Virus record (IMG/VR): IMGVR_UViG_2690316076_000006
DNA length: 27,508 bases
Reading direction: 5' to 3' (one strand)
DNA from: a virus
Taxonomy: Duplodnaviria > Heunggongvirae > Uroviricota > Caudoviricetes
Position 1 is the stretch's first letter. Every line of letters starts with the position of its first letter. The translations under genes were made by a program, and so were the position numbers. A model generated the notes under the pieces. The model was given only the letters and a program-made list of their open reading frames with translations, was not told where the DNA came from and ran no database searches. Shown here piece by piece: positions 6,460 through 23,339 of this stretch.

Positions 6460-6514
6460 GGTTTTCTCACTTCTGAATCGGGGTTACCGGTCAGCCTGGC
6501 TGACCGGATGAAAA

Positions 6515-7033
6515 TCACAGGCCGATATTGCGGCGGTGTTGCTCCAGTCGGTCGACGCCGTTCACCTTCTCAATCATGTTGATGGTGTCAATTTCGACCA
6601 GCTCCTTACCGTCCATCGTCAGCCGGAAATAGGTGCAGACCACGGAGATTTTCGACTCGGTGTCTTCTCCCTGTTTACCCTCGCCGGTGTCGATTTCTTT
6701 CTGACGTCCACGCATGACCACTTCAACGGCCACCGTTTCGCCGGTATCGTCACGCTGGTAAGAGCCTGCAAAACGAATCGGCACAGCATCCACACCGGTT
6801 GCGGCGTAAAGCTCCCAGATAACCGAATCAGGGAAACCACCGAGCGACCACTCCATTGACAGCGCATCGTCATCAAGGCCGAGGTCTACCGGTGCGCTGC
6901 CGTTCATCCCCGCACCGCGATAGTTTTCGAGTTTACGGGTCAGTTTTGGCAGCGTGACGGACTTTGCAACGCCCTGATAGCTGTAGCCGTTCAGAAAGAC
7001 GTTCATTAACTTGAGTTTGCGCGGCATTGCCAT
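6515..7033 (-). CDS. FII: Tail tube protein gpFII, 172 aa
   Basis: Length and synteny match P2 FII. Confidence 0.92.
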   Translation of the reverse strand: MAMPRKLKLMNVFLNGYSYQGVAKSVTLPKLTRKLENYRGAGMNGSAPVDLGLDDDALSMEWSLGGFPDSVIWELYAATGVDAVPIRFAGSYQRDDTGETVAVEVVMRGRQKEIDTGEGKQGEDTESKISVVCTYFRLTMDGKELVEIDTINMIEKVNGVDRLEQHRRNIGL

Positions 7034-7045
7034 CGGTCAGGCTCC

Positions 7046-8236
7046 TTAATTGCTGTTAACCGAGGTGACCAGATTTGCCAGGTATTTATCGGTAATACGC
7101 TGGCGCAGGGTCAGGTTTTCGAGAGGAGGCACCGGGGTATAGTCGTAGTCGATATACAGTTTTCCGGCCTTGAGGGTTTCCGCATCGTTGGATTCTTCGC
7201 TGAACCAGCAGGTCGCATCCACGATATAGCCGTTTGTTTTCAGCTCACGGAATTTGGCATTGATGCCGTCAACGATGTCGCGAATCAGCGTTGCGGTGAT
7301 GGGCTTGTCCACCGCCCACATGTGCGCCTCAGCCATCGTATCGGCCAGCACCTGCGCGGTGCGGGTGTAGTTTTCAAAGAGGAACAGCGGGTCATCAGAG
7401 CAGGTACGGTTACCCCAGAAGCGGAAACCATCACGGCGAATCAGCGTTGTGACACCTGACTCATTCAGCAGGTCAGCATCGGTGCCGGACTCCTGCAAAT
7501 CCCAGAATACAGAGGCACTGATGCCGGTAACACCGTTTACCCCGACATTGGACAGCGTTTTATGCCAGCCCTGCTCCTGGTCGATTTTAGCGCGCAGACC
7601 CAGCGCACGGGCGGTGGCATACGCGGTGGCGGTGGTGCTGCTGACCGTATCCCATGCGAGGAAATCCGGCCAGATGACCATCAGCTCACGCTGGCTGAAA
7701 TTCTGGCGGTAGGCTTTCACCTCGGAAATGGTTTTACAGCCCCATGCGCTGATATACCCGAAAGCGCGCAGCTTCTGACAGACTGATGCCAGTGCAACAG
7801 CCACCTCTTTGGTGTCCAGTCCCGGCACGCCGAGAATACGCGGTTTAACACCGGTTACCGACTCTGCCGCCAGCAGGGCTTTCAGTCCGGTATACTGACC
7901 GTTTTCGTCAGTGGTGCCGATGATATTGGAAACGGTCTGCGCGAGTTTCGTTTCTTCGTCGTCGCCGGTGCCGTCTTCAACACGCACGACAACGGTAACC
8001 GGTTTTGACTGGTCAGCGATGGCCTGCAACGATGCCGCCAGCGTGCCTTTTTTACCGGCCTTTGCAATTGCGCTCTGCACATTGGTAATCAGCACCGGTT
8101 TATTGAGGGGGAAGGTTTCCGCATCCGCATCGCTGGCCGTACAGACCATGCCGACAATGGCAGTGGATACGGTGGAAATGACGCGGGTGCCGTCGTTAAT
8201 CTCCAGCACCTGCACGCCGTGATGATAGTCACTCAT
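7046..8236 (-). CDS. FI: Contractile tail sheath protein gpFI, 396 aa
   Basis: Length and synteny match P2 FI. Confidence 0.92.
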   Translation of the reverse strand: MSDYHHGVQVLEINDGTRVISTVSTAIVGMVCTASDADAETFPLNKPVLITNVQSAIAKAGKKGTLAASLQAIADQSKPVTVVVRVEDGTGDDEETKLAQTVSNIIGTTDENGQYTGLKALLAAESVTGVKPRILGVPGLDTKEVAVALASVCQKLRAFGYISAWGCKTISEVKAYRQNFSQRELMVIWPDFLAWDTVSSTTATAYATARALGLRAKIDQEQGWHKTLSNVGVNGVTGISASVFWDLQESGTDADLLNESGVTTLIRRDGFRFWGNRTCSDDPLFLFENYTRTAQVLADTMAEAHMWAVDKPITATLIRDIVDGINAKFRELKTNGYIVDATCWFSEESNDAETLKAGKLYIDYDYTPVPPLENLTLRQRITDKYLANLVTSVNSN

Positions 8237-8295
8237 CCGTTTAACTCCGTGGTTAATGGGTGAGTGATATTTTCAGTTGTGCCGGAGATGTCAGG

Positions 8296-8889
8296 CTATT
8301 TGTCCCGGTTGGCTAAGGGATGACACAATTTGTTCTTTGTCGCTGATGAGGGGAATTTTTTATAGAGCGTGGACAGGCCAATATCAAAAATCAGCGCCAC
8401 GCGTTGACGTGATTCACCCGCAGCCAGCAACCGTCCTGCCTGTTCCCACTCACTCGCGGTGAGCTTCGGACGTCTGCCACCAATACGACCTTTGGCTCTG
8501 GCCGCTTCCAGTCCGGCGCGAGTCCGCTCAACAATGAGTTCTCGCTCCATTTCAGCCAGGGCACCCATCACATGAAAGAAAAAACGCCCCATCGGCGTGC
8601 TGGTATCAATGGCATCCGTCAGGCTGCGAAAATTAATGCCGCGTTCGCGCAGCTCCTCAACCAGAATGACCAGATGCCGCATACTACGCCCCAGCCGGTC
8701 CAGCTTCCAGACTACCAGTGTATCCCCCTCCGATAATGTCCTGAGCAGTTTTTTCAGCCCCGGCCTGTCGGACTTCGTGCCGCTGATTTTATCCTCAAAA
8801 ATCAGCTCACATCCTGCGCACTCCAGCGCGTTACGCTGCAATTCCGTGTTCTGGTCATTTGTTGACACGCGTACATAGCCAATAAGCAT
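8296..8889 (-). CDS. Serine-recombinase DNA invertase (Gin/Pin/Cin/Hin family), about 197 aa
   Basis: Translation MLIGYVRVSTNDQNTELQRNALECAGCE...GDTLVVWKLDRLGRSMRHL...PMGRFFFHVMGALAEMERELIVERT closely resembles Gin/Pin, with the catalytic serine in the YVRVS motif; start taken at the second ATG (8889), which has AGGGG 6 nt upstream. Confidence 0.9.
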   Translation of the reverse strand: MLIGYVRVSTNDQNTELQRNALECAGCELIFEDKISGTKSDRPGLKKLLRTLSEGDTLVVWKLDRLGRSMRHLVILVEELRERGINFRSLTDAIDTSTPMGRFFFHVMGALAEMERELIVERTRAGLEAARAKGRIGGRRPKLTASEWEQAGRLLAAGESRQRVALIFDIGLSTLYKKFPSSATKNKLCHPLANRDK

Positions 8890-8944
8890 GAGCATCCCCC
8901 TGAATAAAAACCGGAGATGATGCCAGTTGCCCGTTATCTCTGCA

Positions 8945-8970
8945 TTTTCATAAACGTTGGTTTGGGGGAA
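8945..8970. repeat. Invertase crossover site, left (gix/pix-like 26 bp): ttttcataaacgttggtttgggggaa
   Basis: 21 of 26 positions identical to the reverse complement of the site at 10751-10776; resembles gix/hix sites; next to the invertase gene and encoding the GLGE motif of the tail fibre. Confidence 0.7.
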
Positions 8971-9306
8971 TTGGCTCTGGCTGGCGCAACAACCGGCGCT
9001 ATGTTGGTGAATGGGTATGTAGCAATTCCATTAATTATTTCTGGCGTTCGGAGACCACTTATTATCCAGTGGGGAGTGGGGCAGTTTGGGGGAAGTCTGG
9101 GGGATGATGCGGGATATTTAAACAATTTCCCTTTCGCTTTTCCGTCGGCGTGCTACGTGATGGTTGCCAGCCACGTGGGGCATACACCTTCGGGTGCCGG
9201 AATACTATCTGCTTCCGCAATCACAAAAAGCGGCTTTCGTGGTTTTTCCAGCGTAGTGACTGCCGCAAATCCTGTATCGGGCTGTTATGTTGCTATAGGA
9301 GGGTGA
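8947..9306 (+). CDS. Alternative (currently silent) tail-fibre C-terminal variable cassette Hv'
   Basis: Open frame runs through the crossover site (FINVGLGELALAGATTGAM...) to a stop at 9306; it shares the GLGE junction motif with H and would be fused to the constant part of H after inversion. The track ORF extends to an upstream ATG at 8917. Confidence 0.6.
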   Translation, partial: FINVGLGELALAGATTGAMLVNGYVAIPLIISGVRRPLIIQWGVGQFGGSLGDDAGYLNNFPFAFPSACYVMVASHVGHTPSGAGILSASAITKSGFRGFSSVVTAANPVSGCYVAIGG

Positions 9307-9307
9307 T

Positions 9308-9742
9308 GTGTTTTTTAGTCCATCTTTAAATATTTTTGTGAATCCTGCGCTTAAGGATGACTACATCAATGTAAATTCATGGCCAGATGATGCTGTTGAA
9401 GTTGATGAGCAGGTGTATATTGAGTTTTCCGGATTACCGCCGAAAGGAAAAATCCGTATCGCTGGGGAAAATGGTTTTCCTGCATGGTCTGAAATTCCAC
9501 CACCAACGCATGAGGAACAGATTGCCGCAGCCGAATTGAAAAAACAGCAATTGATTAATCAGTCCAACGAATATATGAATACCAAGCAATGGCCTGGTAA
9601 AGCGGCTATTGGTCGTCTGAAAGGTGAGGAACTGGCGCAATATAATTTGTGGCTGGATTATCTGGACGCACTGGAACTGGTTGATACCTCCAGTGCTCCA
9701 GATATTGAATGGCCTACGCCTCCGGCAGTTCAGGCCAGATGA
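9308..9742 (+). CDS. Tail fibre assembly chaperone, alternative cassette (Tfa'), 144 aa
   Basis: C-terminal DIEWPTPPA motif typical of tail fibre assembly proteins (P2 gpG / Mu U family); follows Hv'; convergent with, and overlapping, the other tfa gene. Confidence 0.8.
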   Translation: MFFSPSLNIFVNPALKDDYINVNSWPDDAVEVDEQVYIEFSGLPPKGKIRIAGENGFPAWSEIPPPTHEEQIAAAELKKQQLINQSNEYMNTKQWPGKAAIGRLKGEELAQYNLWLDYLDALELVDTSSAPDIEWPTPPAVQAR

Positions 9743-10307
9743 CATCCGGCGCGGTGCTCGTATCTGTTGCCGTCACCGCGTCAATGTAATCAAGCACGGC
9801 GTTAAGCCGGGTGGTTTCTGCCTGCGTCAGCTTCCGCCCGGCCTGTAATTTCAGCTGAATCAGACTGATGGAAGCCATTGCAGCATCAATCAGTGACTGG
9901 CGCTGTGCTTCTGCCGCTTCTACTGCGGCACCGTGTTGTGCCTCAGTATCTGTCACCCATTTCTCACCATCCCATTTATCATATGGCGTTAACGGTGAAA
10001 GCGTGACATAACCGTTTTTGATGGCACCGATATAATCCACTGTAACAGCAGCACCATTTTCGATTGAGTAAACAGTCTCATTGCGATGGTCTTCTTCATG
10101 GCTCCATCCCTTACCTGTAAATACTGCCACTTTTCCCGGAATGTTTTCGCCCGGGTCAATACCAGTGGAACAGGCGGGCATACTTACACCAGTATTAATA
10201 TATTCATCAGACCAGCCCGTATATTCATACGTTACTGCATCATAATAAAAACAACGCATATCACCCGGCACTGTAGCCAGTCCATTTTCATCAAAAACAG
10301 GTTTCAT
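9714..10307 (-). CDS. G: Tail fibre assembly chaperone (gpG-like), active cassette, 197 aa
   Basis: C-terminal APDVIWPELPEA motif; immediately downstream of H on the minus strand. Confidence 0.85.
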   Translation of the reverse strand: MKPVFDENGLATVPGDMRCFYYDAVTYEYTGWSDEYINTGVSMPACSTGIDPGENIPGKVAVFTGKGWSHEEDHRNETVYSIENGAAVTVDYIGAIKNGYVTLSPLTPYDKWDGEKWVTDTEAQHGAAVEAAEAQRQSLIDAAMASISLIQLKLQAGRKLTQAETTRLNAVLDYIDAVTATDTSTAPDVIWPELPEA

Positions 10308-11590
10308 TATTTAGCCCTCACCAGAAAGTTAAATGCAATGTTACGTGGTCTGACGGCAATAAAATTAACACCATCTCCTACTGAGTTACTGGTGTACTGA
10401 AATCGAGAGAAACCTGGTTGGTGTGCTGATATTCCATCGTAATCAGCAATCGCATGGCCGGACCCTTCTGGATAATTACCGCCAAATTGCGATAAAGCTG
10501 TTGCTGCCTGCCAGCTTAATAATGCTCGCCCACTGTCCGCCCCTCGCCCATCATCCCAGATACGAATGAAATCACCGCGGGCTTCAGGTAATACCAGCGA
10601 AGGAAACACTTTTGCCAGCACAGGGTAATCAGAGGCAGAAAATTTCGCCCCGTTGAACTTCAAAAACACCATACTGGACCAGCTATCGATTACAGTATTT
10701 GGCATTGCAGCGGACGGCCAGAAGAACGGAACGCCAATAGCTGGAGCACCTTCTCCCAAACCAAGGTATGTGAGAAGACCAGCTACATCCTTTCCACTCA
10801 AATGAGTCAGCGTATTGTCCAGCGGTTGTTTACCTGCCAGCGCATTGTTAATGGTGGTACTGAATTTCGGGTCATTGTTGATAGCTGCGGCAATTTCTTT
10901 CAGTGTGTCCAGCGTGTCAGGGGCACCGTTAATCAGAGCGGTAATAGCGGCCTGTACAAACGCAGTGGTCGCAATCCGCGTGGTGTTATTTCCTGCGGCA
11001 GGCGTCGGCGCTTTTGGTTCTCCGGTAAATGTCGGATTATGTTTCTGTGCATACTGGGTATGAGGATCCTGTGCGGCAATGTGGTTTCTCATCTGGTCAT
11101 CCACATACAGCTTTAATTCCAGGACTTTATCATCCACGTATTTACGGGTCGCCAGTACCACCGACGGGTCGATTTTCAGCGTGATGGCTTCGGTATTCGT
11201 GACAACCAGAATCATGCGGATAGTCTGGGTACGACCACTGCCTTCCTGCAACTGCGGTTTGTACGTTTCCGGGCAGTTCGCCACCGCAATGAGTACGCCT
11301 TCATCATCATAAAGCCCAATCTCACGGATCCAGAATCCTCCCTCGTTCTCAGGGATGATTTGCTCCGCAATAATCTGGCTCTGGTTGTTCGGGTCAACAC
11401 TCAGAAGATTCAGCGGCGCGATGCGTTTCTGGTTAATCAGTTTTGTCTGTGCCGGGTCTGGTGTCGGCAAGACACCATTCGCATCACCAACGGCCATTTG
11501 CGTCAGATTCAGCTTACTGCCGAGCATCGTCGCGTTAGCCAGCCGTGCTGCGCCCTGATTAGTCAGAATGGCGTAGTATTTCACTGTCAT
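10307..11590 (-). CDS. H: Tail fibre protein gpH (constant N-terminal part plus currently expressed variable C-terminus), 427 aa
   Basis: N-terminus resembles P2 gpH (MAVGD...GGFW.RE.GLYDD.G.LIAVAN...YKP...EGSG); position between I and the tfa gene; the C-terminal ~150 aa lie inside the invertible segment. Confidence 0.88.
   Translation of the reverse strand: MTVKYYAILTNQGAARLANATMLGSKLNLTQMAVGDANGVLPTPDPAQTKLINQKRIAPLNLLSVDPNNQSQIIAEQIIPENEGGFWIREIGLYDDEGVLIAVANCPETYKPQLQEGSGRTQTIRMILVVTNTEAITLKIDPSVVLATRKYVDDKVLELKLYVDDQMRNHIAAQDPHTQYAQKHNPTFTGEPKAPTPAAGNNTTRIATTAFVQAAITALINGAPDTLDTLKEIAAAINNDPKFSTTINNALAGKQPLDNTLTHLSGKDVAGLLTYLGLGEGAPAIGVPFFWPSAAMPNTVIDSWSSMVFLKFNGAKFSASDYPVLAKVFPSLVLPEARGDFIRIWDDGRGADSGRALLSWQAATALSQFGGNYPEGSGHAIADYDGISAHQPGFSRFQYTSNSVGDGVNFIAVRPRNIAFNFLVRAK
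10751..10776. repeat. Invertase crossover site, right (inside gene H): ttctcccaaaccaaggtatgtgagaa
   Basis: Inverted copy of the 8945-8970 site (21/26 identical, identical central TT); encodes LTYLGLGEGAP in H, which marks the constant/variable junction. Confidence 0.7.
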
Positions 11591-12198
11591 GCGTTTACTC
11601 TCATGTTATCAATTAAATGAATGGCCGAGGCCGGGAAATAATCCCCTCCGACAATAATGGCCTCCGGGGTGTAGGGATAAACCGTCAGGGCGTCGCCGTG
11701 ATAGCATCCCGCACCGGCAAAAATGTTGCCGGTTGTACTTAAACTGATAGCCAGTCCCGTCAGATGGCGGCTTGCAGGTTTTGCATCAGCAACGAGACGC
11801 TCCAGCTCCTGATACATTTCCTCGGTAATACCCTGCTCAAGCACGCCAACAACGATGCGGAACGTCCCCGGCTCCTCGTTGAGCTGCCACCACTCCCTCA
11901 CCTCAATCAGATAGCCGAGCGGCTCCACCACACGGCGAATCGCACCAATAGTGCCCTTATGGCAGTGAATGAAATACGCATCGCGGATAACAGCGCGTTT
12001 TGTCGCTTCCGGCCACTTATCATCCCAGCGGTCAACCGAAAATGACCACGCCAGCCACGGCAGCAGATTTGCCGGACAGGTATCCGGGTTCCACAGCTCA
12101 CGAATACTGACCGGCGTTTTTTCAATTTCCGCACAGGCTCTTGCGGCGGCGACTTCAAGCGGTGATGAGCCGGTCGGCAGCAGGCGCGAATCACTCAT
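11587..12198 (-). CDS. I: Baseplate protein gpI, 203 aa
   Basis: Synteny (between J and H) and sequence recall of the P2 gpI N-terminus (MSDSRLLPTGSSPLEVAAA...). Confidence 0.85.
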   Translation of the reverse strand: MSDSRLLPTGSSPLEVAAARACAEIEKTPVSIRELWNPDTCPANLLPWLAWSFSVDRWDDKWPEATKRAVIRDAYFIHCHKGTIGAIRRVVEPLGYLIEVREWWQLNEEPGTFRIVVGVLEQGITEEMYQELERLVADAKPASRHLTGLAISLSTTGNIFAGAGCYHGDALTVYPYTPEAIIVGGDYFPASAIHLIDNMRVNA

Positions 12199-13099
12199 CC
12201 GAGCCTCCGGTCACGACGCTGTATTCGGTGCAGAAAGACGCCTGCGTACTGTTGAGCACAATGTCAGCCAGAGGTGCAGTCAGTTCGACACGTTGCACGC
12301 CTTCCACATGCAAAGCGGCATAAATGGCAGACAGACGGATGTCGCGCCCAAGCCGGTGCTGTGCCGTGATGTACGCTTCCAGTTTTTTCACGGCAGCAGC
12401 GCGGATGGGTTCGCTTTCGGGACCTGGGTAAAGGTAAAGCGTGGCGTTTATCTGATATTCAACAATGGCGGCAGACTGCACGGTCACGCGGTCGGCCACC
12501 GGCCTGACGTCCTCGCCATTAAGGGCGTTACGCACCACGGCCAGCAGGTCTTCGGATGCGACGCCGTTATTTTCACGTGACAGCACGGAGATAGTGACGC
12601 AGGCCGGAGACGGACTGGTGACAGAGATATCCGCGACACGCCCGTCGGCACTGCGACCATGATACTGATAGGCTCCCACAGACCCGGCGACGCTTAAGCC
12701 CTCAAACGCCTGCTGAATACGCAGACGATAATCGGTGTCAGACTCCATCACTGCCGGTGTCGGCGGGATGGTCGAATCATCTGCCGGGGTGATAATCAGG
12801 CGCGTGGTGTTGTAATTGGCACCAATCACATCAAGGTCATTACCGGCGGCACAGGCCAGCATCACCGCCCGTGCGGCCTCATTCACACGCTGACGCCAGA
12901 TAAGCTCACGATAAGCGTTTTCCTCCAGCAGTTTGACGAGAGGCTCGGATTCCAGCGTCAGGGTACGGGCGACCGCCTCCTGCTGGTCTTCCGGGTAAAG
13001 GGAAATCAGTGTCGCCTTGCGTTCGGCAAGAATGGTTTCAAAGTCCAGCTCCTCGACCACATCCGGTGCGGGTAGCTGGTTCAGGTCGATAATCGGCAT
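12191..13099 (-). CDS. J: Baseplate assembly protein gpJ, 302 aa
   Basis: Length and synteny match P2 gpJ. Confidence 0.92.
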   Translation of the reverse strand: MPIIDLNQLPAPDVVEELDFETILAERKATLISLYPEDQQEAVARTLTLESEPLVKLLEENAYRELIWRQRVNEAARAVMLACAAGNDLDVIGANYNTTRLIITPADDSTIPPTPAVMESDTDYRLRIQQAFEGLSVAGSVGAYQYHGRSADGRVADISVTSPSPACVTISVLSRENNGVASEDLLAVVRNALNGEDVRPVADRVTVQSAAIVEYQINATLYLYPGPESEPIRAAAVKKLEAYITAQHRLGRDIRLSAIYAALHVEGVQRVELTAPLADIVLNSTQASFCTEYSVVTGGSDE

Positions 13100-13103
13100 G
13101 GTT

Positions 13104-13451
13104 TCAACTCACAGGGATGGTTAACGAAAGTGGCTGGCCGGTGTCGTTGTGCTGACCGGTTAACGTGACCGTCATTCGCCCGTCAAAACTGCGCGCCGTG
13201 GTGACGGATGACAGGGTGACGCGGGGTTCCCATTTCAGTACCGCCATGTAACAGGCGACCTTAATCTGCAACTCAAGCGCCGGAGTCTGCGGCTGGTCAA
13301 TCATTGATGCCAGCAACGAGCCGTAATCACGACGCATCACCCGTGAGCCGACCGGTGTACGCAGGATATCGCCGATACTCTGGCTGATATGCTCAAGGTC
13401 AGTGACAGTCAGGCCATTACTGCGATTCATTCCGAGATAACGCGCTGTCAT
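13104..13451 (-). CDS. W: Baseplate wedge protein gpW, 115 aa
   Basis: Length and synteny match P2 gpW. Confidence 0.9.
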   Translation of the reverse strand: MTARYLGMNRSNGLTVTDLEHISQSIGDILRTPVGSRVMRRDYGSLLASMIDQPQTPALELQIKVACYMAVLKWEPRVTLSSVTTARSFDGRMTVTLTGQHNDTGQPLSLTIPVS

Positions 13452-14083: not shown

Positions 14084-14149
14084 AACGGGAAGGATGCCGC
14101 CGGGTCATACCGGCGGCAATGTGACGATGAGGTGTCGGGAATGGCACAA

Positions 14150-14569
14150 CTAACGGTCGAGGTGAGCCAGAATAATCTCTTCAATCATCTGCACATCCTC
14201 ACCGGTAAAGCCGAGCAGAGGACGCGCCGGATAATCAATTTTCTTACCGTCTTTCCGGTTTTCTTCCGACAGACCGAACTGATGCACACTGGCGATTTTC
14301 GGTGACTTCCCGCCGTAAAATTCCATTGCTGCCTGTTCCGGGCTGGCGCGGATATGCAAAAAACGACTGGTGATAAGTTTCGCAAACATTTTTCGCTTAA
14401 CACGACCGGTCTTTTTTCTGGCGCTCTGCTGCTGGCGTGGCGCATAGGGTGTGCCGTCCGGGGCTTTCTGTGCCATCACCCGGCGCTGCTGACTCTGCCG
14501 CAGACGTTTCGCCAGTTCTGCACTCAGTCGCCGACGCCCTGACGGTGACAGCGACTCAATCAGTCCGGT
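14150..14569 (-). pseudogene. S: Tail completion/virion morphogenesis gene S, 5'-truncated at an internal deletion junction
   Basis: C-terminal ~135 aa (…QKAPDGTPYAPRQQQSARKKTGRVKRKMFAKLITSRFLHIRASPEQ…ILAHLDR) match the P2 gpS family; the N-terminus is replaced by out-of-frame N-derived sequence; the track ORF starts at TTG; the only in-frame ATG is at 14476. Confidence 0.7.
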
Positions 14570-14822
14570 CACCGGCGGTGTCGGTGGTGCTGGCGATGGA
14601 GCCGGTGACACCAATACCAATTTTTTCCCCTTTCATTTCGCTGACCGGCACAATGTTGATGCGGGTCAGAAAGTCAGAGGACTCCTGCATGGTGTTCATC
14701 AGGGTCTGGGTGACCGACGGTTCAACGGTGAATTTTTTCGACACATCACCGGCGTCGATGCCGTTCAGTTCGGCAACACGGGACAGGTAGGCATTAAATT
14801 TAAAGCGGGTTTCCTGGCGCAT
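14556..14822 (-). pseudogene. N: Major capsid protein gene N, truncated after about 84 codons (88-aa remnant)
   Basis: MRQETRFKFNAYLSRVAELNGIDAGDVSKKFTVEPSVTQTLMNTMQESSDFLTRINIVPVSEMKGEKIGIGVTGSIASTTDTAG matches the P2 gpN N-terminus as I recall it, then runs into 4 unrelated codons and a stop; full gpN is about 357 aa. Confidence 0.8.
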
Positions 14823-14880
14823 AGTTTTTCCTGAAATTAAGGGTTAATCGTGAAGGTTTTCCCGGACTGACTGACGCCGG

Positions 14881-15735
14881 TCAGCAGTTCGTCATCAGGG
14901 CGTCACCGCCACCGCCGGTGGCTTTGCTGCGGCGCTGCTGGGTCAGACTTTCGGTGTGGTCGAGACTGTTTTTCAGGCGGGTGAATGCCTGACTAGTTTC
15001 ATCCGCCCTGTCAGTCACATCCTGCTTAAGTGCCGAAAAGGCGGTTTCCATCTCAGCAAGGCGCTGCTCAGTGGCGCTCAGTTTTTCCTGCACATGCTCA
15101 GCGACAGCGGTCACCGCTTCATGCACGTCATTCAGACGGGCGTCATCGCTGGCCTGTTTGCGGCCAAAAATGGATTTCACCTTTTCGGTCAGGGCGGTGA
15201 ACACGGTTTCAGGCAGGTCTTCAAATTCCAGCTCAACAGGCGTTGCCACTGAAATCAGGTTTTCAGGGCTTAATTTGAAGCGGTTCAGAGGGTTGTGTTT
15301 TGCCGTGCGGCAGAATTCCAGGTATTCCGTGCCGAGGCTTGCCGGGTCATCGGTGACGGCCAGACCCACCAGATAACATTTGCCTGTATTGGCAAAGTTC
15401 GGCTGAATTTCCATTGAGGTATAGACCTTCTGCGCGGCCTTGTTCATCGCGATAAGGTCATCGGTCGGGGTGATTTTCGCAAACAGCGCCCATTTGCCTT
15501 TCAGCGCCGAATCATCGTCAATCTTTTCGGCCTTCAGTTCGGCCACATCGCCATAACGTTTAAAAATACCGTCAGGCAGGATGCCGCGCAGATGTTCCAG
15601 GTTAATGCGGCAACCATAGACACGCGGGTCAAAGGTTTCGGCCATTTCCTGAATATCCTGCGCACTGATGACACGCCCGTCACAGGTGTCACCCTCAACG
15701 CCGATACGAAAGAATTTTGAGACTTTTTTTGCCAT
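14881..15735 (-). CDS. O: Capsid scaffolding protein gpO, 284 aa
   Basis: Translation from the internal Met (MAKKVSKFFRIGVEGDTCDGR...) matches P2 gpO; the track ORF is N-terminally over-extended. Confidence 0.9.
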   Translation of the reverse strand: MAKKVSKFFRIGVEGDTCDGRVISAQDIQEMAETFDPRVYGCRINLEHLRGILPDGIFKRYGDVAELKAEKIDDDSALKGKWALFAKITPTDDLIAMNKAAQKVYTSMEIQPNFANTGKCYLVGLAVTDDPASLGTEYLEFCRTAKHNPLNRFKLSPENLISVATPVELEFEDLPETVFTALTEKVKSIFGRKQASDDARLNDVHEAVTAVAEHVQEKLSATEQRLAEMETAFSALKQDVTDRADETSQAFTRLKNSLDHTESLTQQRRSKATGGGGDALMTNC

Positions 15736-15908
15736 TGTCAGGAGTCCTGAATAGTGATTAGAGGAGTCACATGTCGGCATCAGTTTCCCGACGATGCGCA
15801 TCCTCCGCCATCAGTCCCGGATGGCTTATCACTGACACAACAGCACCTTAGCGAATCGCGGGGCGCGACTCAGTAGCCTTGCCGTGTATTCATCACGGCG
15901 AGGTATTC

Positions 15909-17681
15909 ATGACCATCACCACAGACACCACTCTTTTACACGACCCGCGTCGTCAGGCGGCGCTGCTGTACTGGCAGGGATTTTCCGTGCCGCAGATTGC
16001 CGCCATGTTGCAGATGAAACGCCCGACGGTGCAGAGCTGGAAACAGCGCGACGGCTGGGACAGCGTTGCCCCCATCAGCCGTGTCGAAATGAGTCTGGAA
16101 GCGCGGCTGACCCAGCTCATCATCAAACCGCAGAAAACCGGCGGTGACTTCAAGGAAATTGACCTGCTCGGACGCCAGATTGAACGACTGGCACGGGTCA
16201 ACCGTTACAGTCAGACCGGCAACGAGGCAGACCTTAATCCGAACGTCGCTAACCGCAACAAAGGCGGGCGTCGCAAACCGAAAAAGAATTTTTTCAGTGA
16301 CGAGGCCATCGAAAAGCTGGAGCAGATTTTCTTTGAGCAGTCTTTCGAATATCAGTTGCACTGGTATCGCGCCGGGCTTGAGCACCGCATCCGCGATATC
16401 CTGAAATCCCGCCAGATTGGCGCGACGTTTTATTTTTCCCGCGAGGCGCTGCTGCGCGCCCTGAAAACCGGTCATAACCAGATTTTTCTGTCGGCCAGTA
16501 AAACGCAGGCGTATGTGTTCCGCGAATACATCATCGCCTTTGCCCGGCTGGTTGACGTTGACCTGACCGGTGACCCGATTGTCCTGGGCAATAACAGCGC
16601 AAAACTGATTTTTCTCGGCACCAACTCCAACACCGCACAGAGCCATAACGGCGACCTGTACGTCGATGAGATTTTCTGGATCCCGAATTTTCAGGTACTG
16701 CGTAAGGTGGCATCAGGTATGGCCTCACAGAGTCACCTGCGCTCGACCTATTTCTCCACCCCGTCCACGCTGGCGCACGACGCCTACCCGTTCTGGTCGG
16801 GTGAACTGTTCAACCGGGGTCGCGCCAGCGCCGCCGAACGCGTGGAAATCGACGTCAGTCATAACGCCCTTGCCGGAGGTCTTCTCTGTGCGGACGGCCA
16901 GTGGCGGCAGATTGTCACCATTGAGGACGCGCTGAAAGGCGGCTGCACGCTGTTCGACATTGAGCAGCTCAAACGTGAAAACAGCGCCGACGATTTTAAA
17001 AACCTGTTCATGTGTGAATTTGTTGACGACAAGGCGTCGGTGTTCCCGTTCGAGGAGCTGCAACGCTGCATGGTCGACACGCTGGAAGAATGGGAAGACT
17101 ATGCGCCGTTTGCCGCGAATCCGTTCGGCTCCCGCCCGGTATGGATTGGTTACGACCCGTCACACCGTGGCGACAGTGCCGGATGCGTGGTGCTGGCACC
17201 GCCGGTGGTGGCCGGTGGCAAATTCAGAATACTTGAGCGTCACCAGTGGAAAGGCATGGACTTTGCCACTCAGGCTGAATCCATCCGCAAACTCACCGAA
17301 AAATACAACGTCGAATACATCGGTATTGATGCCACCGGCCTCGGTGTCGGCGTGTTCCAGCTCGTGCGCTCGTTCTATCCCGCCGCGCGCGACATCCGCT
17401 ACACGCCGGAAATGAAAACCGCAATGGTGCTCAAGGCAAAAGACGTCATCCGCCGTGGCTGTCTGGAATATGACGTCAGCGCCACCGACATCACCAGCTC
17501 GTTTATGGCTATCCGCAAGACCATGACCAGCAGCGGACGCAGCGCCACCTATGAGGCCAGCCGCAGCGAGGAAGCCAGCCACGCCGATCTCGCCTGGGCG
17601 ACCATGCACGCCCTGTTAAATGAGCCACTCACCGCGGGTATCAGCACTCCGCTGACATCCACCATTCTGGAGTTTTACTGA
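15909..17681 (+). CDS. P: Terminase large subunit gpP, 590 aa
   Basis: MTITTDTTLLHDPRRQAALLYWQGF... matches P2 gpP; divergent from O as in P2; the track ORF is over-extended by 10 codons. Confidence 0.92.
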   Translation: MTITTDTTLLHDPRRQAALLYWQGFSVPQIAAMLQMKRPTVQSWKQRDGWDSVAPISRVEMSLEARLTQLIIKPQKTGGDFKEIDLLGRQIERLARVNRYSQTGNEADLNPNVANRNKGGRRKPKKNFFSDEAIEKLEQIFFEQSFEYQLHWYRAGLEHRIRDILKSRQIGATFYFSREALLRALKTGHNQIFLSASKTQAYVFREYIIAFARLVDVDLTGDPIVLGNNSAKLIFLGTNSNTAQSHNGDLYVDEIFWIPNFQVLRKVASGMASQSHLRSTYFSTPSTLAHDAYPFWSGELFNRGRASAAERVEIDVSHNALAGGLLCADGQWRQIVTIEDALKGGCTLFDIEQLKRENSADDFKNLFMCEFVDDKASVFPFEELQRCMVDTLEEWEDYAPFAANPFGSRPVWIGYDPSHRGDSAGCVVLAPPVVAGGKFRILERHQWKGMDFATQAESIRKLTEKYNVEYIGIDATGLGVGVFQLVRSFYPAARDIRYTPEMKTAMVLKAKDVIRRGCLEYDVSATDITSSFMAIRKTMTSSGRSATYEASRSEEASHADLAWATMHALLNEPLTAGISTPLTSTILEFY

Positions 17682-18715
17682 TGAGCAAGAAAAAAGGGAA
17701 AACACCGCGACCAGCGGCAAAAAAAATGACCGCCAGCGCCCCGAAAATGGAGGCATTCACCTTTGGTGAGCCGGTGCCGGTACTCGACCGCCGTGACATT
17801 CTGGATTACGTCGAATGCATCAGTAACGGCAGATGGTATGAGCCACCGGTCAGCTTTACCGGTCTGGCAAAAAGCCTGCGTGCTGCCGTGCATCACAGCT
17901 CACCGATTTACGTCAAACGTAATATTCTGGCCTCGACATTTATCCCGCATCCGTGGCTTTCCCAGCAGGATTTCAGCCGCTTTGTACTGGATTTTCTGGT
18001 GTTCGGTAATGCGTTTCTGGAAAAGCGTTACAGCACCACCGGTAAGGTCATCAGACTGGAAACCTCACCGGCAAAATATACCCGCCGTGGTGTGGCAGAG
18101 GATGTTTACTGGTGGGTGCCGTCCTTCAACGAGCCGACAGCCTTCGCGCCCGGTTCCGTGTTTCACCTGCTGGAGCCGGATATTAATCAGGAGTTGTACG
18201 GCCTGCCGGAATATCTCAGCGCCCTTAACTCTGCCTGGCTGAATGAGTCGGCCACGCTGTTCCGCCGCAAGTATTACGAAAATGGCGCACATGCCGGATA
18301 CATCATGTACGTCACCGATGCCGTGCAGGATCGCAACGATATCGAAATGCTTCGCGAAAACATGGTGAAGTCAAAAGGCCGCAATAACTTTAAAAATCTG
18401 TTTCTCTATGCCCCGCAGGGGAAAGCCGACGGCATTAAAATTATCCCGCTCAGTGAAGTGGCGACGAAGGACGATTTTTTTAATATCAAAAAAGCCAGCG
18501 CCGCTGACCTGCTGGACGCACACCGCATCCCCTTTCAGTTGATGGGCGGCAAGCCGGAGAACGTCGGGTCGCTGGGTGATATTGAGAAAGTGGCAAAGGT
18601 CTTTGTCCGCAATGAGCTTATCCCGTTACAGGACAGGATCCGCGAGATAAACGGCTGGCTCGGCCAGGAGGTCATCCGCTTTAAAAACTACTCACTGGAC
18701 ACTGACAACGGCTGA
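17681..18715 (+). CDS. Q: Portal protein gpQ, 344 aa
   Basis: Length and synteny match P2 gpQ; start overlaps the P stop. Confidence 0.92.
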   Translation: MSKKKGKTPRPAAKKMTASAPKMEAFTFGEPVPVLDRRDILDYVECISNGRWYEPPVSFTGLAKSLRAAVHHSSPIYVKRNILASTFIPHPWLSQQDFSRFVLDFLVFGNAFLEKRYSTTGKVIRLETSPAKYTRRGVAEDVYWWVPSFNEPTAFAPGSVFHLLEPDINQELYGLPEYLSALNSAWLNESATLFRRKYYENGAHAGYIMYVTDAVQDRNDIEMLRENMVKSKGRNNFKNLFLYAPQGKADGIKIIPLSEVATKDDFFNIKKASAADLLDAHRIPFQLMGGKPENVGSLGDIEKVAKVFVRNELIPLQDRIREINGWLGQEVIRFKNYSLDTDNG

Positions 18716-18720
18716 ACATC

Positions 18721-18742
18721 GCCGCCTGCGGGCGGCTTTTTT
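18721..18742 (+). terminator. Intrinsic terminator after Q
   Basis: GC stem gccgcc/ggcggc with a 4-nt loop, followed by T6, 6 bp after the Q stop. Confidence 0.6.
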
Positions 18743-18883
18743 ACATCCCGTCATCACGCCCTCACACACTCACCACCGCACAAAACAGCCCGCAGGCAAA
18801 CCAACGCCCAACGGACAGACTAAGCGCCGTCACGACGCGCTGAGACGCTGAAAAAATAAAATCAGCACCACCGCCAGCGCGCA

Positions 18884-18902
18884 GTGCTTTCCCCGCCTCG
18901 CC
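18884..18902. other. cos site (19-nt cohesive end sequence)
   Basis: gtgctttccccgcctcgcc is the reverse complement of the P2 cohesive end GGCGAGGCGGGGAAAGCAC as I recall it; sits next to Q as in P2. Confidence 0.85.
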
Positions 18903-19352
18903 CGCCCGCTTCGTGGGGCTGTTTTAATGCAGTTGCATGAACACTCCAAGAGCACGCCAGCACTGGCGGCGCTCACACGTAACGGGGAAGGAAAACGCAT
19001 GCGATTCGATGCAGTACTGCATGCGGAGCTGAAAAAGGCAGAAAATACTGAAAAAACGCATAAAAAACCGGCATTCAGGTCACCGGTTTGAGTCAGCTTC
19101 ATTGTGGTTACTTGTCGCGCAATGCGCCAATAATACTAGTAAGGCAACAAGTGGCAACAATCAGCAAAAAAACCGTTGTCCACGGATTCTCATAAACGAG
19201 AGATAACATATTGATATTGATCCTTTTATTGGTACATTATAATGCGACATTATCGGTCTTTAACAACCTGGCTGAGTTCTATCTTACCAATTTTCGTGAT
19301 AAGCATTTAATCAATTACGTAGTATGGTTAAAGGCACACAAAGGAGAAAAAT

Positions 19353-19403
19353 ATGCGAATGCATTTTTTAGACAACCGACTTCCAAAAATCTTTTCAACG
19401 TAA
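19353..19403 (+). CDS. 16-codon mini-ORF (MRMHFLDNRLPKIFST) with a consensus Shine-Dalgarno, upstream of the cargo gene
   Basis: AAGGAG at 19341-19346, 6 nt before the ATG; lies in the AT-rich leader about 110 bp downstream of a -10-like TATAAT (19238-19243). Function unknown; could be a leader peptide or spurious. Confidence 0.3.
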   Translation: MRMHFLDNRLPKIFST

Positions 19404-19609
19404 TACAGAAAATCACAAACATCTATCAATTACAAATTAACAAACATCAACGCTACCAGCTTAATTGCAGCAAAGATCAGGAGATAACATCACTACAACA
19501 ATAAATCAAAAACTGTTAGATTTGGCCAGAAATGCCAACTCCACACATAACTTCACGCAGATACATAGTTCATAATTAAACAATTTATCGACTTGGAGCG
19601 AATAGAATA

Positions 19610-20614
19610 ATGTCAAAAGAAAACACACCAATGGAACCAAGCATAAATATAAAGGCAGACTTCACTGAGATATTAAATTCATCGCCAAAGGGCGTTAAGT
19701 ATATATTCAATATTCTCTTCGGAAAAAAACACGCAGAGGCCGAGAGAAGGATTAGGCTATCGAACGCTCAAGATTATGCAGATATGAAAAAAATCATATC
19801 TGGAGAAGCAACATATGATAATGAGAAGAACCAAATAACACCTTCTAACCAAGACATTAAGTCATTAATTGTTAGCGCATTGCAGGATGAGGAAATTACA
19901 AATCTTATAGGCTGCATCAGAAGCGCCTCAGAATACATTAAAGATGATACTGATAACGATGGTGGTCCATCCCAAGACTTTATTAACAGATGGCGAAGCG
20001 ATGCGAAACTAATCAGTGAACAGTCTATCCAGTACGTTTGGGGGCGAATTCTAGCGGAAGAAATAAACACACCTCAAACTGTAAGCGTAAGAACCCTTGA
20101 TGTAATAAAAAACCTATCAAAAGAAGAGGCTGAATATTTCTCAGAGGCACTTGACTTTATATTTTACGATTCTTATTTGATTGATAATGGAGATACCAAA
20201 AATCCATTCATCTCACCAGGAAAAGGTCATAAATTGAGAGATGCAGGATTAATAGTTACTTTTACTCCTGGAATGTATCGCTCCGGGACATGGGATACAC
20301 AACGTTTTGTTCTCAGCGGAGCCACCATACCAAAAGTATTCTACATCAGCAGTTCTGATAAGTATTACTTTATCGATGCAGGCAAAATAACTGACGACCC
20401 TAAAATTCTGGTATGGGAGTTAACAAATGCCGGCAAAGAATTATATGAAATTCTAAAGAAAGATCATAAAACCAAAGAAGAATCAGTAAAAAAAATTATT
20501 GACTGGATATTAAATAGCACTAAAGCTTCTGAGTTTTACTATGGAGATATTGTTAAGCATTCAGACAATAGCCTGTCAGTTGAGAACTTACTGACTATAA
20601 GCAGAAATAGATAG
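19610..20614 (+). CDS. Hypothetical protein, 334 aa, low-GC cargo gene at the P2 cos-A (old/tin) variable locus; candidate phage-defence/exclusion protein of unrecognised family
   Basis: Long ORF with GGAG 11 nt upstream; markedly AT-rich codon usage relative to the rest of the prophage; occupies the position of P2 orf91/tin/old; no P-loop or other motif I can recognise by eye. Confidence 0.8.
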   Translation: MSKENTPMEPSINIKADFTEILNSSPKGVKYIFNILFGKKHAEAERRIRLSNAQDYADMKKIISGEATYDNEKNQITPSNQDIKSLIVSALQDEEITNLIGCIRSASEYIKDDTDNDGGPSQDFINRWRSDAKLISEQSIQYVWGRILAEEINTPQTVSVRTLDVIKNLSKEEAEYFSEALDFIFYDSYLIDNGDTKNPFISPGKGHKLRDAGLIVTFTPGMYRSGTWDTQRFVLSGATIPKVFYISSSDKYYFIDAGKITDDPKILVWELTNAGKELYEILKKDHKTKEESVKKIIDWILNSTKASEFYYGDIVKHSDNSLSVENLLTISRNR

Positions 20615-21053
20615 AACATCAAAACAAGACCCCATATCTAATCAGTATACGAACAGGCAAGAACATCCGTTTTTGTCTGTTCCTTTCAAAACAACTACCC
20701 GCATTTCCATAATACTAAAAGATATTTTTCCCTTTATTCAAACCCACAATAATGTTTACGCTCAATAATAAAAAACATCAGAATATTTTTTAACTCCTAC
20801 ACAGCTTGTTTCTCAATCCCGTTGTGTATATCATCAGGACCAAGACATTTCACACCAGTGTTATCCATCACTTGTTCAGAAATCATCGCTACTTTTATGA
20901 CAGAGTAGTGACTCTATATACTAAGAATTACGACCATCCTTATTATCCTGACTTTCATCAATAAAGAAAATAATACCGCCAGCTTTATCTCTTGGTGAAT
21001 AAGGAGGGCCAGCGCTAACCAGATAACTGCCTATATGAATTAACTTGTTGTCA

Positions 21054-23339
21054 TTAGCTCCACTCCATTTCTGTTGAATACCCCGGCCACTCATCAGCGA
21101 CCGGATACGTGAATGTTTTCCCGTCATAATTTACGGTCGCGCCACGCGCCAGCGCCTCAAGCTCCCATCGCTGCGGCCTGATACCGTTCTGAGCAAGGTC
21201 AACGCGGACACGGGTAATTTGCATTCTTTCCGACCGGGTCAGTCTGGCCGATGGTGCAATTTCATGTGGTTTTAACGGGCTTCCGTTTCTCTGCTGACGA
21301 TTTGGTGTTCTCAGCCCGTATTTTAATGCGCCCCTGAGCGCCCTCACGACCTCCGGGTCATTCCATTCGATAACACCGTCATCTACCAGATTAAGCACTG
21401 CTGCGGCGTGCTCAGAAGGTGTGGGAGCCGGTAACGAAGTATCGCCACAGGTGAGCTTTCCACAGTTATTGACAGGACTCCGAGGCGCGGCGATGCCGCT
21501 TTTTAAAGTCAAAGGCTCAACGACCGGAACTTTCGGCACAATGCGCCAGTCCGTCGTTCTGGTGATATGAATATGACGCGCGCCGAGATGCGGCGCGTAA
21601 ATGCCGACCACTCTCTCGACTTCTTCCTCGTACTCGTTAACGTCATCCGACAGACTACGGGCGACCCTGACAGTCTGACAATCGCGCGGGACATTTGCCC
21701 CGCCCTGCGCGCTGATATACAGCGCAAAATCACCACTGTCTGCGGCGGCGCGTGCAGCCTCGACGCGCTCGTCAAACTCATCAGCAATGCTGACGCCGCG
21801 AGGCAATTTGCGTAGTTCACGGTAAGCCCCCATTGTCGGCAGGCCAACCGTTTTAAATTGCGGAATGCGCCACGTTGACGCCCATGCGGTAACAGCCGCT
21901 GCAGTGTCTTTCAGCGGCCTGCCGGTGTCGTTATCGAGCTGACCATCCAGTGCATAGCCGTCGATGTTTTTTGAAATGTATTTCGCGATATATCCCGCAG
22001 CACCGCCCCGGTTAAGGTGTTTTGCCTGAAAACGGTTTCGCGCGGCTCCTCTTTCGTCGCCATCCTCTTTGAGCGCATAGCGACGCATGATTTCGATAAT
22101 CTGGTTACGCTGGCGTGGATGACAAAAAAGCATCATATGCCAGTGCGGCGTTCCGTCGTGGTGTGGCTCGACGACTCGCAAACCGTAGACCTGTAAATCA
22201 TTATCCTTGAATGCCGTGCGCATCAGGCTCCAGATACGGCAGAGATAACGCTGCGCATCCTTTGGATTAAATGCCTCATCGTTCCAGCCGTGATTAAGCT
22301 GAACGGTTTTACTTTCGCCTTTTCCGACCTGACGTGTCGGGTGATACTTTGACGGCGCGGTCAGCGTGATAAACATCCCCACATCACCCTCTGCGGCGGC
22401 GTAACGCTCAATACCGGCAATGGTGTTCATCAGCTCCATCCGGCGAATTTCAGGATTAGAAATACTGCCCATCACCTTACTGATAAGGTCGATGCGCTCG
22501 CCGGTTTCCCTGTTTTCAAGGTCACACGATTTAAGAAATTCCAGATTTGCCTGGCGGCGCGCACGCACATCACGAATGGCGTGTTTACTGGCATAAGGAG
22601 AACGGTCTTTATTGACCTCCCCGACAGCTATCAGTAACGCCTCATGCCAGCGCATACGCTGGCCTTTAAGCTGATGAGTCCACCACTCATCGTTAAACAG
22701 GCGGGCAATGGCAGAATATGCCTGCCTCGTGGTCATCTGTCCTTTACGGTATTTTTTCCAGTAGAGCGGGGAAATATTGAAAGCACGTGCAGCGCCAGCA
22801 ACATGACCATACAGGTGAGCCTGCGCCTCATCCGTAAACAGCGATTCTTTTTCACCATGCGCATCAACCCATGCATCGCAGAGTTCCTCATACATCATGA
22901 AAAGCTGCGATGAGATACGGGCGGCAAACTTTTTCAGCTCCTTGTCATTCATTCCCGGCAGGCGCGCATAGTGGTCACGCTCTGCCAGAAACAACAACGA
23001 CGCGTCGGTGTTCATTTCATGGCGCTGATTCACACGCTCAATGCGCGGCCATAAACGACGCTGAAAAGTGGATGTGAGGAAATAAAACCCGTGCACCGGG
23101 CTTTTATTGCGCCGGATGTATTCATAGCGTGAAGTAAACAGCGAGCGCAAAAAGTAAGGCAGGCGGTTAATCGTGGATAAAACACCTTGCACCTGACGCA
23201 TCTCGTCACGTGTAAGGGGTCTTTCGCGCCCGACGGCCTCGCGTGGCGCGTTCCATGCATAAGCACCGGTAAACGTCTTACCGGTGCCTGCGGCAAATGC
23301 TGACGGAGGGACAAAATGCCCGGAGGCTTTAACGGCCAT
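21054..23339 (-). CDS. A: Replication initiation protein gpA (rolling-circle nickase), 761 aa
   Basis: Translation from the internal Met (MAVKASGHFVPPSAFAAGTGK...) matches P2 gpA across its length. Confidence 0.93.
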   Translation of the reverse strand: MAVKASGHFVPPSAFAAGTGKTFTGAYAWNAPREAVGRERPLTRDEMRQVQGVLSTINRLPYFLRSLFTSRYEYIRRNKSPVHGFYFLTSTFQRRLWPRIERVNQRHEMNTDASLLFLAERDHYARLPGMNDKELKKFAARISSQLFMMYEELCDAWVDAHGEKESLFTDEAQAHLYGHVAGAARAFNISPLYWKKYRKGQMTTRQAYSAIARLFNDEWWTHQLKGQRMRWHEALLIAVGEVNKDRSPYASKHAIRDVRARRQANLEFLKSCDLENRETGERIDLISKVMGSISNPEIRRMELMNTIAGIERYAAAEGDVGMFITLTAPSKYHPTRQVGKGESKTVQLNHGWNDEAFNPKDAQRYLCRIWSLMRTAFKDNDLQVYGLRVVEPHHDGTPHWHMMLFCHPRQRNQIIEIMRRYALKEDGDERGAARNRFQAKHLNRGGAAGYIAKYISKNIDGYALDGQLDNDTGRPLKDTAAAVTAWASTWRIPQFKTVGLPTMGAYRELRKLPRGVSIADEFDERVEAARAAADSGDFALYISAQGGANVPRDCQTVRVARSLSDDVNEYEEEVERVVGIYAPHLGARHIHITRTTDWRIVPKVPVVEPLTLKSGIAAPRSPVNNCGKLTCGDTSLPAPTPSEHAAAVLNLVDDGVIEWNDPEVVRALRGALKYGLRTPNRQQRNGSPLKPHEIAPSARLTRSERMQITRVRVDLAQNGIRPQRWELEALARGATVNYDGKTFTYPVADEWPGYSTEMEWS

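Follow-up and report, generated by a model that had tools for sequence, protein, structure and literature searches.

The window, that is, the whole stretch of 27,508 nucleotides that was analysed, contains a P2-like prophage inserted into an E. coli chromosome, with yegQ/cyaR on one side and yegR on the other. As shown by BLAST against P2 (NC_001895), the early and late regions of the element form colinear blocks of 94-98% nucleotide identity with the reference, and gene order and sequence are colinear as in P2-like (Peduovirus) prophages. The genes are arranged in the order ogr-D...V, S', N', O / P, Q, cos, cargo, A...cox / C, int, in which N' and S' are the stump of the capsid gene N and the remnant of the tail-completion gene S. 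The 28-bp attP core is doubled, with one copy at each end of the prophage, as integration by P2 Int leaves it. Both host flanks, yegQ and the yegR side, were 100% identical to many E. coli chromosomes. The insertion position at yegQ/cyaR is the classical P2 locI. The boundary features are as follows.

1-1362, yegQ, host flank
1445-1530, cyaR small RNA gene (Rfam CyaR_RyeE, 100.7 bits)
1507-1534, attL core, 28 bp (AATCTCCCTTACACGGGCTTATTTTTTA), direct repeat equal to P2 attP 24355-24382 and overlapping the 3' end of cyaR
1507-27018, minus strand, integrated P2-like prophage, with the late genes on the minus strand
26991-27018, attR core, direct repeat of the attL core; P2 homology ends here at P2 24355

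In all, 28 P2 proteins were matched in the window by tblastn, full-length with the exception of N, S and a diverged H. Amino acid identity of the full-length counterparts was 82-100% overall and 94-100% for all except I. The genes kept by the prophage are listed below.

1638-13451, minus strand, the late genes W, J, FI, FII, E, T, U, D and ogr, full-length, 98-100% amino acid identity (tblastn, Pfam)
within 1638-13451, minus strand, I, 175 of 176 amino acids matched, 82% identity
13448-14083, minus strand, V, baseplate spike, intact, 211 of 211 amino acids, 94% identity
14884-15735, minus strand, O, capsid scaffold/protease, intact, 284 of 284 amino acids, 99.6% identity, opening the truncated late operon O-N'-S'
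15909-17681, plus strand, P, large terminase, intact, 590 of 590 amino acids, 99.7% identity
17681-18715, plus strand, Q, portal, intact, 343 of 344 amino acids, 98.8% identity
18884-18902, cos, joined 19-nt cohesive ends, equal to P2 19-1; the stretch 18884-18931 equals P2 33593-33546, and cosL and cosR are annotated in the P2 record
19610-20614, low-GC cargo gene with DUF2806, intact
21057-26908, early region, A, orf83-80, B, orf78 and cox on the minus strand, C and int on the plus strand, full-length, 96-100% amino acid identity

The prophage resembles P2 in its gene order, its attP core, its type of integration site (locI at yegQ/cyaR) and its proteins, except for the tail-fibre gene H. 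This is a diverged allele that was aligned to P2 H over the N-terminal part only (about 42-47% identity, tblastn), and an invertible segment follows it where P2 has G. Unlike P2, the prophage carries this other tail-fibre allele, the invertible segment and the DUF2806 cargo gene, and it is without the non-essential genes orf30, fun(Z), tin, old and orf91. The gap between V and S' measures 66 bp in the absence of orf30, with equal spacing in the relative NZ_CP027587.1 (locus L004). No convincing match for the DUF2806 protein was obtained with PADLOC or with tblastn against phages. The prophage further lacks N from codon 85 to codon 357, the genes M, L, X, Y, K, lysA/B/C and R, and the first 11 codons of S; at the site of this loss the two remnants and the junction between them are found.

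14150-14572, minus strand, S', tail-completion/virion-morphogenesis gene without codons 1-11
14556-14822, minus strand, N', major capsid stump of 88 amino acids, made of 84 of 357 codons followed by DRTD and a stop read from out-of-frame S DNA
14570/14571, deletion junction with a 2-bp microhomology, CA on the plus strand and TG on the coding strand

The first-pass annotation had proposed an internal deletion fusing a capsid N stump to the tail-completion gene S, with a junction near 14560-14575. Two abutting BLAST blocks confirmed this, window 14148-14575 corresponding to P2 9369-8941 (S) and window 14570-18902 to P2 4332-1 (N', O, P and Q). The junction was placed at 14570/14571 by base-by-base three-way alignment with the complete P2 genome, which gave the exact breakpoints and the TG microhomology. 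The alignment was repeated with NZ_CP027587.1, of the intact relatives found in complete E. coli genomes the closest, which carries N-M-L-X-holin-endolysin-lysA-lysB-lysC-R-S in P2 order, and both references agreed. Relative to both of them the missing segment is 4,615 bp (P2 4333-8947), so that the earlier estimate of roughly 4.5 kb was essentially right, the measured size being nearer 4.6 kb. N does end as an 88-aa remnant: residues 1-84 are 100% identical to gpN 1-84, with Pfam Phage_cap_P2 matched at positions 1-78 of 327. S had been described as broken in the middle, which was not the case. Homology restarts at codon 12, the break lying at codon 11/12 of 150, and 139 codons are kept at 97% identity (tblastn, gpS 11-150), with Phage_tail_S (PF05069) matched at positions 14-147 of 148.

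S' is in a different frame from N', as had been noted, one base out. It was also said to have no proper start. Its own start is indeed lost, but two candidate starts lie in frame. The junction itself makes a GTG at 14572-14570 for S codon 12; it has no Shine-Dalgarno sequence, and the NCBI annotation starts the 140-aa S' product there. The open frame also reaches upstream to a TTG at 14620, preceded by the Shine-Dalgarno-like AAAGGGG (duplex -7.8 kcal/mol, in the top 8.6% of background in the start-codon/Shine-Dalgarno scan). With X and R gone, an S' protein, if made, would probably not help tail assembly. For annotation, N' and S' should count as pseudogenes.

On the coding strand the junction reads ...ACCGCCGGTG/ACCGGACTG..., N supplying the sequence up to GCCGGTG and S that from TGACCGG (here and below a slash marks the join). 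The TG is the sole exact microhomology, and the flanking likeness of CCGG-TG to CCGGCTG is imperfect. All bases at the junction could be assigned to N or S, with no filler DNA, no inserted bases and no IS, and a repeat search of the window found no repeat family spanning the junction. Two distant genes abut, both are cut and nothing is inserted between them, as in an internal deletion. The homology at the join lies within the approximately 1-10 bp of microhomology-mediated illegitimate recombination products, and no recombinase site, IS end or long repeat is involved. The 2-bp microhomology without filler or mobile-element scar is the signature of RecA-independent illegitimate recombination, which in E. 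coli resembles MMEJ when mediated by microhomology (PMC11372144). Judged by the anatomy of the junction, a single 4,615-bp deletion inside the O late operon, joining N codon 84/85 to S codon 11/12 at the TG, would have made the prophage defective by this RecA-independent route.

Several statements about the gene content had been made from the first reading, and most of them held. The rest of N and M, L, X, Y, K, lysA/B/C and R were said to be lost, and tblastn with all P2 proteins found none of M, L, X, Y, K, lysA, lysB, lysC and R in the window, which takes in the whole prophage from attL to attR. Neither capsids nor lysis were to be expected, in agreement with the missing capsid, holin, endolysin and LysA/B/C genes, and int, cox, C, the replication genes, portal, large terminase and scaffold were reported as kept and proved full-length. 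The claim of a complete tail and baseplate module was mistaken: X and R are deleted and S is without its start, and tail assembly should fail too. The late operon now consists of promoter-O-N'-S', and the gene products gone from it are the major capsid protein, the small terminase, the head-completion protein L, the tail proteins X and R, holin, endolysin and LysA/B/C. X, R and S are marked as essential tail genes in the P2 record. The full essential late set of a plaque-forming P2-like phage is not present, with N cut at codon 84, S without codons 1-11, and M, L, X, Y, K and R missing altogether. Because the capsid, small terminase, L, X, R and lysis genes are absent, the element is predicted, from its gene content and the essentiality notes in the P2 record, to be unable to make heads or finished tails, to package DNA, to lyse the cell or to act as a P4 helper.

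The genes and sites that appear intact are C, int, cox, attL, attR, A, B, cos, portal, large terminase, scaffold, most tail genes and the cargo gene; the gene content is that of P2 minus one block. Since C, int, cox, the att sites, A, B and cos are kept, P2 immunity should persist, and the deleted prophage may still excise and replicate. The element as such is a known sort of defective prophage, and defective P2-like prophages that have kept cargo and defence genes are on record (PMC13586616). Apart from the recurrent S-side end of its deletion, it is an ordinary defective prophage and a case of ordinary prophage decay.

The S-side breakpoint at P2 8946-8948 (GACCGGCTG/ACCGGACTG; CTG/ACCGG), at S codon 11/12, recurs in at least seven other independent P2-like remnants. 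Beyond this window there are six leftward deletions with differing left ends and one rightward deletion, all at P2 8946-8948. The same breakpoint with a short-microhomology junction was seen in TB06052 (NZ_CM129848.1), Z217-4 (NZ_CP159628.1) and GCA_047729915.1, as well as in IMG/VR 2541047936_000006 and in the metagenome contigs SKEK01001325 and SKEE01001285. The left partners, given as P2 gene and position, are as follows.

P 2434, locus L013, complete genome TB06052 (NZ_CM129848.1)
P 2514, loci L006-L008, three data sets, likewise at yegQ
P 2595, locus L136, metagenome
N 4332, this window
N 4980, locus L010
M/L 5948, locus L104, IMG/VR
Y 6932, locus L137, metagenome

All seven left partners are joined to TG/ACCGGACT at P2 8946-8948. 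The microhomologies at these junctions are 1-7 bp long, 2 bp being the commonest, and the leftward deletions span 2.0-6.5 kb. Over the eight independent events the partner position varies across 4.5 kb and the fixed end agrees within 2-3 bases. The rightward event is that of Z217-4, a complete genome (NZ_CP159628.1), in which R and the first 11 codons of S are present as far as ...GACCGGCTG, where they are joined to the tail-fibre gene. The remnants differ from the window in their left partners, which lie in P, N, M/L or Y, and several of them are more decayed, with extra deletions (P internal, V to D/FI, FI), whereas the window shows a single deletion.

The first hot-spot remnants were found by look-up of the exact 140-aa S' product, and DNA searches added the others. 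As a matched control we used S' forms of the same allele whose start lies at another CTG codon in the 5' part of S (codons 14, 18, 26, 30 and 34). No mid-contig junction was found at these five CTG codons, against three junction classes at codon 11. The control forms were absent from the collection or lay only 8-16 nt from contig ends, where CTG had evidently been taken as the start. The three classes came from the 140-aa S' look-up, which can succeed only where the junction supplies a start codon at this point; L136 and L137 were picked up by a start-codon-creating pattern, which leaves out C before TG. L013, L104 and Z217-4 were found with neither a protein look-up nor a start-codon-creating DNA pattern. 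The sole unbiased sample, 120 IMG/VR contigs with an S anchor, contained 119 wild-type sequences and one hot-spot junction. Among the P2-like loci of complete E. coli genomes the share of hot-spot remnants is well below 1%, and left-flank and right-flank matches in these genomes numbered 1,784 and 1,759 places, a count without power for the hot-spot frequency. Scans of IMG/VR for reverse-direction and CTG-type junctions returned SNP variants only, and an S' look-up with CTG translated as Leu gave no match. No literature description of a recurrent S breakpoint was found in searches that were not aimed at it specifically. On this evidence, which is partly ascertained, the S-side end is not random and the site behaves as a deletion hot spot.

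We found no structural or sequence feature that accounts for the hot spot when likeness to ori, Chi, folding, type IIS sites and CRISPR were checked. Nicking by P2 gpA at a pseudo-origin was ruled out, as the ori nick site and the S site are without similarity, and so was Chi-limited RecBCD resection, P2 having no Chi site in either orientation. A hairpin or cruciform was rejected because the folding energy at the S site equals that obtained after shuffling (z = -0.29 and 0.04), and the one inverted repeat detected, of 8-11 bp, has a loop of about 72 nt. A type IIS cut of the form GAAGAC(2/6) fits the S site exactly, and none of the other listed endpoints lies at a GAAGAC/GTCTTC cut position, so the fit was taken as coincidence. 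CRISPR self-targeting was not supported: in 5,426 complete genomes, P2 8915-8990 was never matched by a spacer alone. Selection for a new start of S was not supported either: the ATG or GTG in 7 of 7 leftward junctions was largely forced by the search patterns, and the P/S junctions moreover remove the late promoter region.

The explanation that survives best places the preference in the joining itself. The G+C-rich tandem GACCGG-CT-GACCGG would pair exceptionally well, though imperfectly, with a large number of CCGG/GGNTG partners, and no special break would be needed. The stretch in S that is the candidate determinant of the clustering is GACCGGCTGACCGG. In favour of this reading, the left partners all resemble CCGGCTG(ACCGG) at 5-7 positions. 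The fetched loci gave 22 clean deletion-junction classes, and near-coincident endpoints in independent remnants are also seen elsewhere (FI 18028/18031; FI 18220/18224/18225; P 2594/2598). A CCGG is found no more than 6 nt away from 15 of the 38 distinct deletion endpoints in these loci (expected, 5.2), an enrichment that is partly circular, as the partners were picked by homology to a site containing CCGG. However, P2 has 253 CCGG and 9 TGACCGG sites, yet the S site dominates. We put the chance that such a preference suffices at slightly below even. Microhomology-mediated illegitimate recombination strongly preferring the tandem GACCGG-CT-GACCGG is the most economical reading, and a site-specific break or stall at the S site is possible.

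Under this second explanation, a site-specific break or a replication stall at S codon 11/12 starts the deletions, one end staying fixed and the other being resected or switched to a variable microhomology. Agreement of eight independent events within 2-3 bases, with a partner varying over 4.5 kb, speaks for a break or stall, as do the use of the site in both directions and the lack of use of other CTG sites in S. Candidate triggers are a nuclease, CRISPR-Cas3 self-targeting through an AAG PAM at P2 8937-8939, or a replication stall. The nick that type I-E Cas3 makes in the non-target strand falls at about protospacer positions 6-9, after which DNA is degraded away from the protospacer. The junction would be at positions 6-9 after the AAG PAM, and the direction of Cas3 degradation would agree with the leftward deletions, but the rightward event is at odds with a strictly unidirectional Cas3. 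The absence of a CRISPR-spacer-only match in the complete genomes also argues against a break or stall, as do the lack of likeness to the ori nick, the absence of Chi from P2, folding no better than shuffled and a GAAGAC(2/6) geometry confined to the S site among the listed endpoints. We consider a break or stall unlikely as the cause. The wider proposal, that the S codon 11/12 site (GACCGGCTG/ACCGGACTG) is a genuine fragile site of P2-type phages at which a break or stall repeatedly costs neighbouring genes, and that the deleted prophage could persist and be mobilised by a helper, is offered tentatively and seems to us rather doubtful.

It could also be presumed that the deletion was selected, lysis and morphogenesis functions that kill the cell being shed while immunity and cargo are kept. 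The lysis cassette is gone with C, int, cox, A, B and the cargo gene (19610-20614) intact, all 7 of the 7 leftward hot-spot deletions take out at least K, lysA/B/C and R, and conserved defence genes are known from defective P2-like elements (PMC13586616). Against such adaptive domestication, the junction occurs in one isolate only and shows no sign of spread, and P2 is not SOS-inducible (PMC2669165), so the gain from losing lysis genes would be small. Selection also leaves the nucleotide-level precision of the breakpoint and the rightward Z217-4 event unexplained. Domestication is quite an unlikely cause of the deletion.

The exact 88-aa N' product is on record solely in GCA_001285265.1 (contig CYBK01000018.1, 91 kb) and in the Logan assembly of run ERR137787. 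At 100% identity, the first follows the window for 20 kb and the second for 14 kb, and both may come from one library. The N'/S' junction was covered by none of 50,697 phage records and none of 5,426 complete E. coli genomes, and exact-pattern scans of IMG/VR, JGI metagenomes and GTDB representatives found none. On these counts the idea that N and S are naturally adjacent in some phage lineage was rejected, and an intact phage with such an arrangement, which would have spoken against a deletion, was not seen among these records. P2-like loci occupy a median of 2 places per genome in the complete E. coli genomes, many of which have more than one. Confined as it is to the data of one isolate, the deletion looks like a private event. 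It is probably recent, the sole ground being that the retained genes show no other truncation.

A source that is a short-read draft assembly with a 91-kb contig, and a junction present in no complete genome, raise the question whether the N'/S' join is a mis-join or collapse in the assembly of a prophage that is in truth intact. The two sides, however, have just 2 bp of exact homology in common, and a de Bruijn or k-mer assembler joins such sides only when reads hold junction-spanning k-mers. The identical junction over 14 kb in the independent Logan assembly of ERR137787 and the S-side breakpoint in unrelated data sets, two complete genomes among them, likewise argue against an artefact, which we regard as very improbable. 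A tailocin in the making, that is, a head-less P2 derivative kept for phage-tail bacteriocins, is hardly credible even with intact sheath, tube, tape measure, baseplate and fibre genes and an invertible fibre segment, for X and R (essential tail genes in the P2 record) and the lysis cassette needed for release are deleted and Q, P, O, int and the replication genes are still there. Like the window, R-type pyocins and tailocins possess sheath, tube, baseplate and fibre genes of P2 type and do without a capsid gene. Tailocin clusters keep a gpX homologue and the lysis cassette and are without portal, terminase, integrase and replication genes; the window shows the reverse pattern, X, R, Y and K being absent and Q, P, O, int, A and B present.

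We hold with confidence that this is a P2-like prophage at locI which was inactivated by one microhomology-mediated deletion of 4,615 bp, with its S-side end at a recurrent breakpoint. A related case is Sp13 of E. coli O157:H7 Sakai, a defective P2-like prophage that excises, replicates and is packaged with the help of other prophages (PMC2669165). Both elements are P2-like, have lost morphogenesis genes and have kept early functions. Sp13 is without most morphogenetic genes, whereas in the prophage of the window, known here from sequence, the loss is confined to a single block of 4.6 kb, and Q, P, O and the majority of the tail genes are still there. With cos, int, cox and A kept, its mobilisation by a co-resident P2-like helper is conceivable. 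The prediction is that the strain would neither release P2 particles nor give P4-type satellite help from this locus.

At least eight independent P2-like deletions at one site are a testable example of non-random prophage decay. Should the hot spot have a defined mechanism, this would bear on how bacteria inactivate or domesticate their prophages, and NTG/ACCGGACT in place of CTG would be a simple sequence marker for disarmed P2 prophages. If the S site is truly fragile, a host nuclease or CRISPR-Cas, a phage-encoded activity, or replication that stalls at the tandem GACCGG might be the trigger. Lysis, head or tail genes next to the site would then be lost repeatedly, and P2 prophages of different E. 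coli lineages would be disarmed alike. The deleted prophage described here, with cos, int, cox and A, would in that case be an immunity and cargo element that a co-resident P2-like helper could mobilise.

The S-side breakpoint of the deletion, at window positions 14569-14572 (P2 8946-8948), was common to at least seven further independent deletions in P2-like remnants. Besides the deletion of the window, six leftward deletions ended at this breakpoint, their partner sites differing and lying in P, N, M/L and Y. A rightward deletion was found there in the complete genome Z217-4. The remnants with a breakpoint at P2 8946-8948, listed as fetched P2-like loci, are L006-L008, L010, L013, L104, L136, L137 and L178. 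No mid-contig junctions were detected at five matched control CTG sites examined in S.

Near-coincident endpoints were also present elsewhere among independent P2 remnants (loci L006-L013, L078, L104, L134 and L178). In P2 coordinates, these were located in FI (18028/18031 and 18220/18224/18225), P (2594/2598) and V (10668/10685). CCGG lay within 6 nt of 15 of the 38 deletion endpoints versus 5.2 expected, an enrichment that is partly circular because many partners had been picked by homology to a CCGG-containing site.

Many draft assemblies (L009, L011, L012, L138-L149) contained "complete" S proteins of 140, 133, 125 or 121 aa, which are annotation artefacts. The contigs end 7-23 nt upstream, and a CTG codon was annotated as the start. 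Of the eight contigs listed with the 133-aa form, seven stop at one and the same base, as might be expected if they share a repeat boundary inside the S 5' region.

In the window, the junction between the capsid-gene stump N' and S' turned S codon 12 into a GTG in frame with S (14572), upstream of which the S frame was open as far as a TGA at 14635. A TTG at 14620 in this open frame is preceded by a Shine-Dalgarno-like AAAGGGG. Judged from these sequence features (14572-14635), translation could yield an S protein that is truncated or has a substituted N-terminus. The gap between S and V was 66 bp (14084-14149), and no counterpart of P2 orf30, its terminator or the annotated pV activator site was found in the window between the two genes. 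The intact relative NZ_CP027587.1 has the identical S-V arrangement, which differs from that of P2.

The tail-fibre region is invertible and comprises the following features, together with two fibre-assembly genes in opposite orientations:
8296-11590, invertible tail-fibre segment
8296-8895, serine invertase with Resolvase and HTH_7 domains
8917-9306, alternative C-terminal cassette for H
8945-8982 and 10739-10776, inverted repeats
10307-11590, fibre gene H

The Logan contig of sequencing run ERR137787 stops in the middle of the right repeat, at window position 10755, which suggests that the culture used for sequencing contained the segment in both orientations. At the left end (1445-1534), the sRNA gene cyaR and the attL core overlap, and the 3' end of cyaR therefore comes from the prophage end.

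The P2 old/tin cargo position is occupied by a low-GC segment (18932-21044, 34-39%) with a sole ORF:
19610-20614, + strand, DUF2806 ORF, 334 aa

Past its first 345 nt, none of 5,426 complete E. coli genomes gave a near-DNA match to the segment, and tblastn of the ORF against 50,697 phage records gave no match. PADLOC returned marginal matches only. The ORF may represent a defence or cargo gene that is still uncharacterised.
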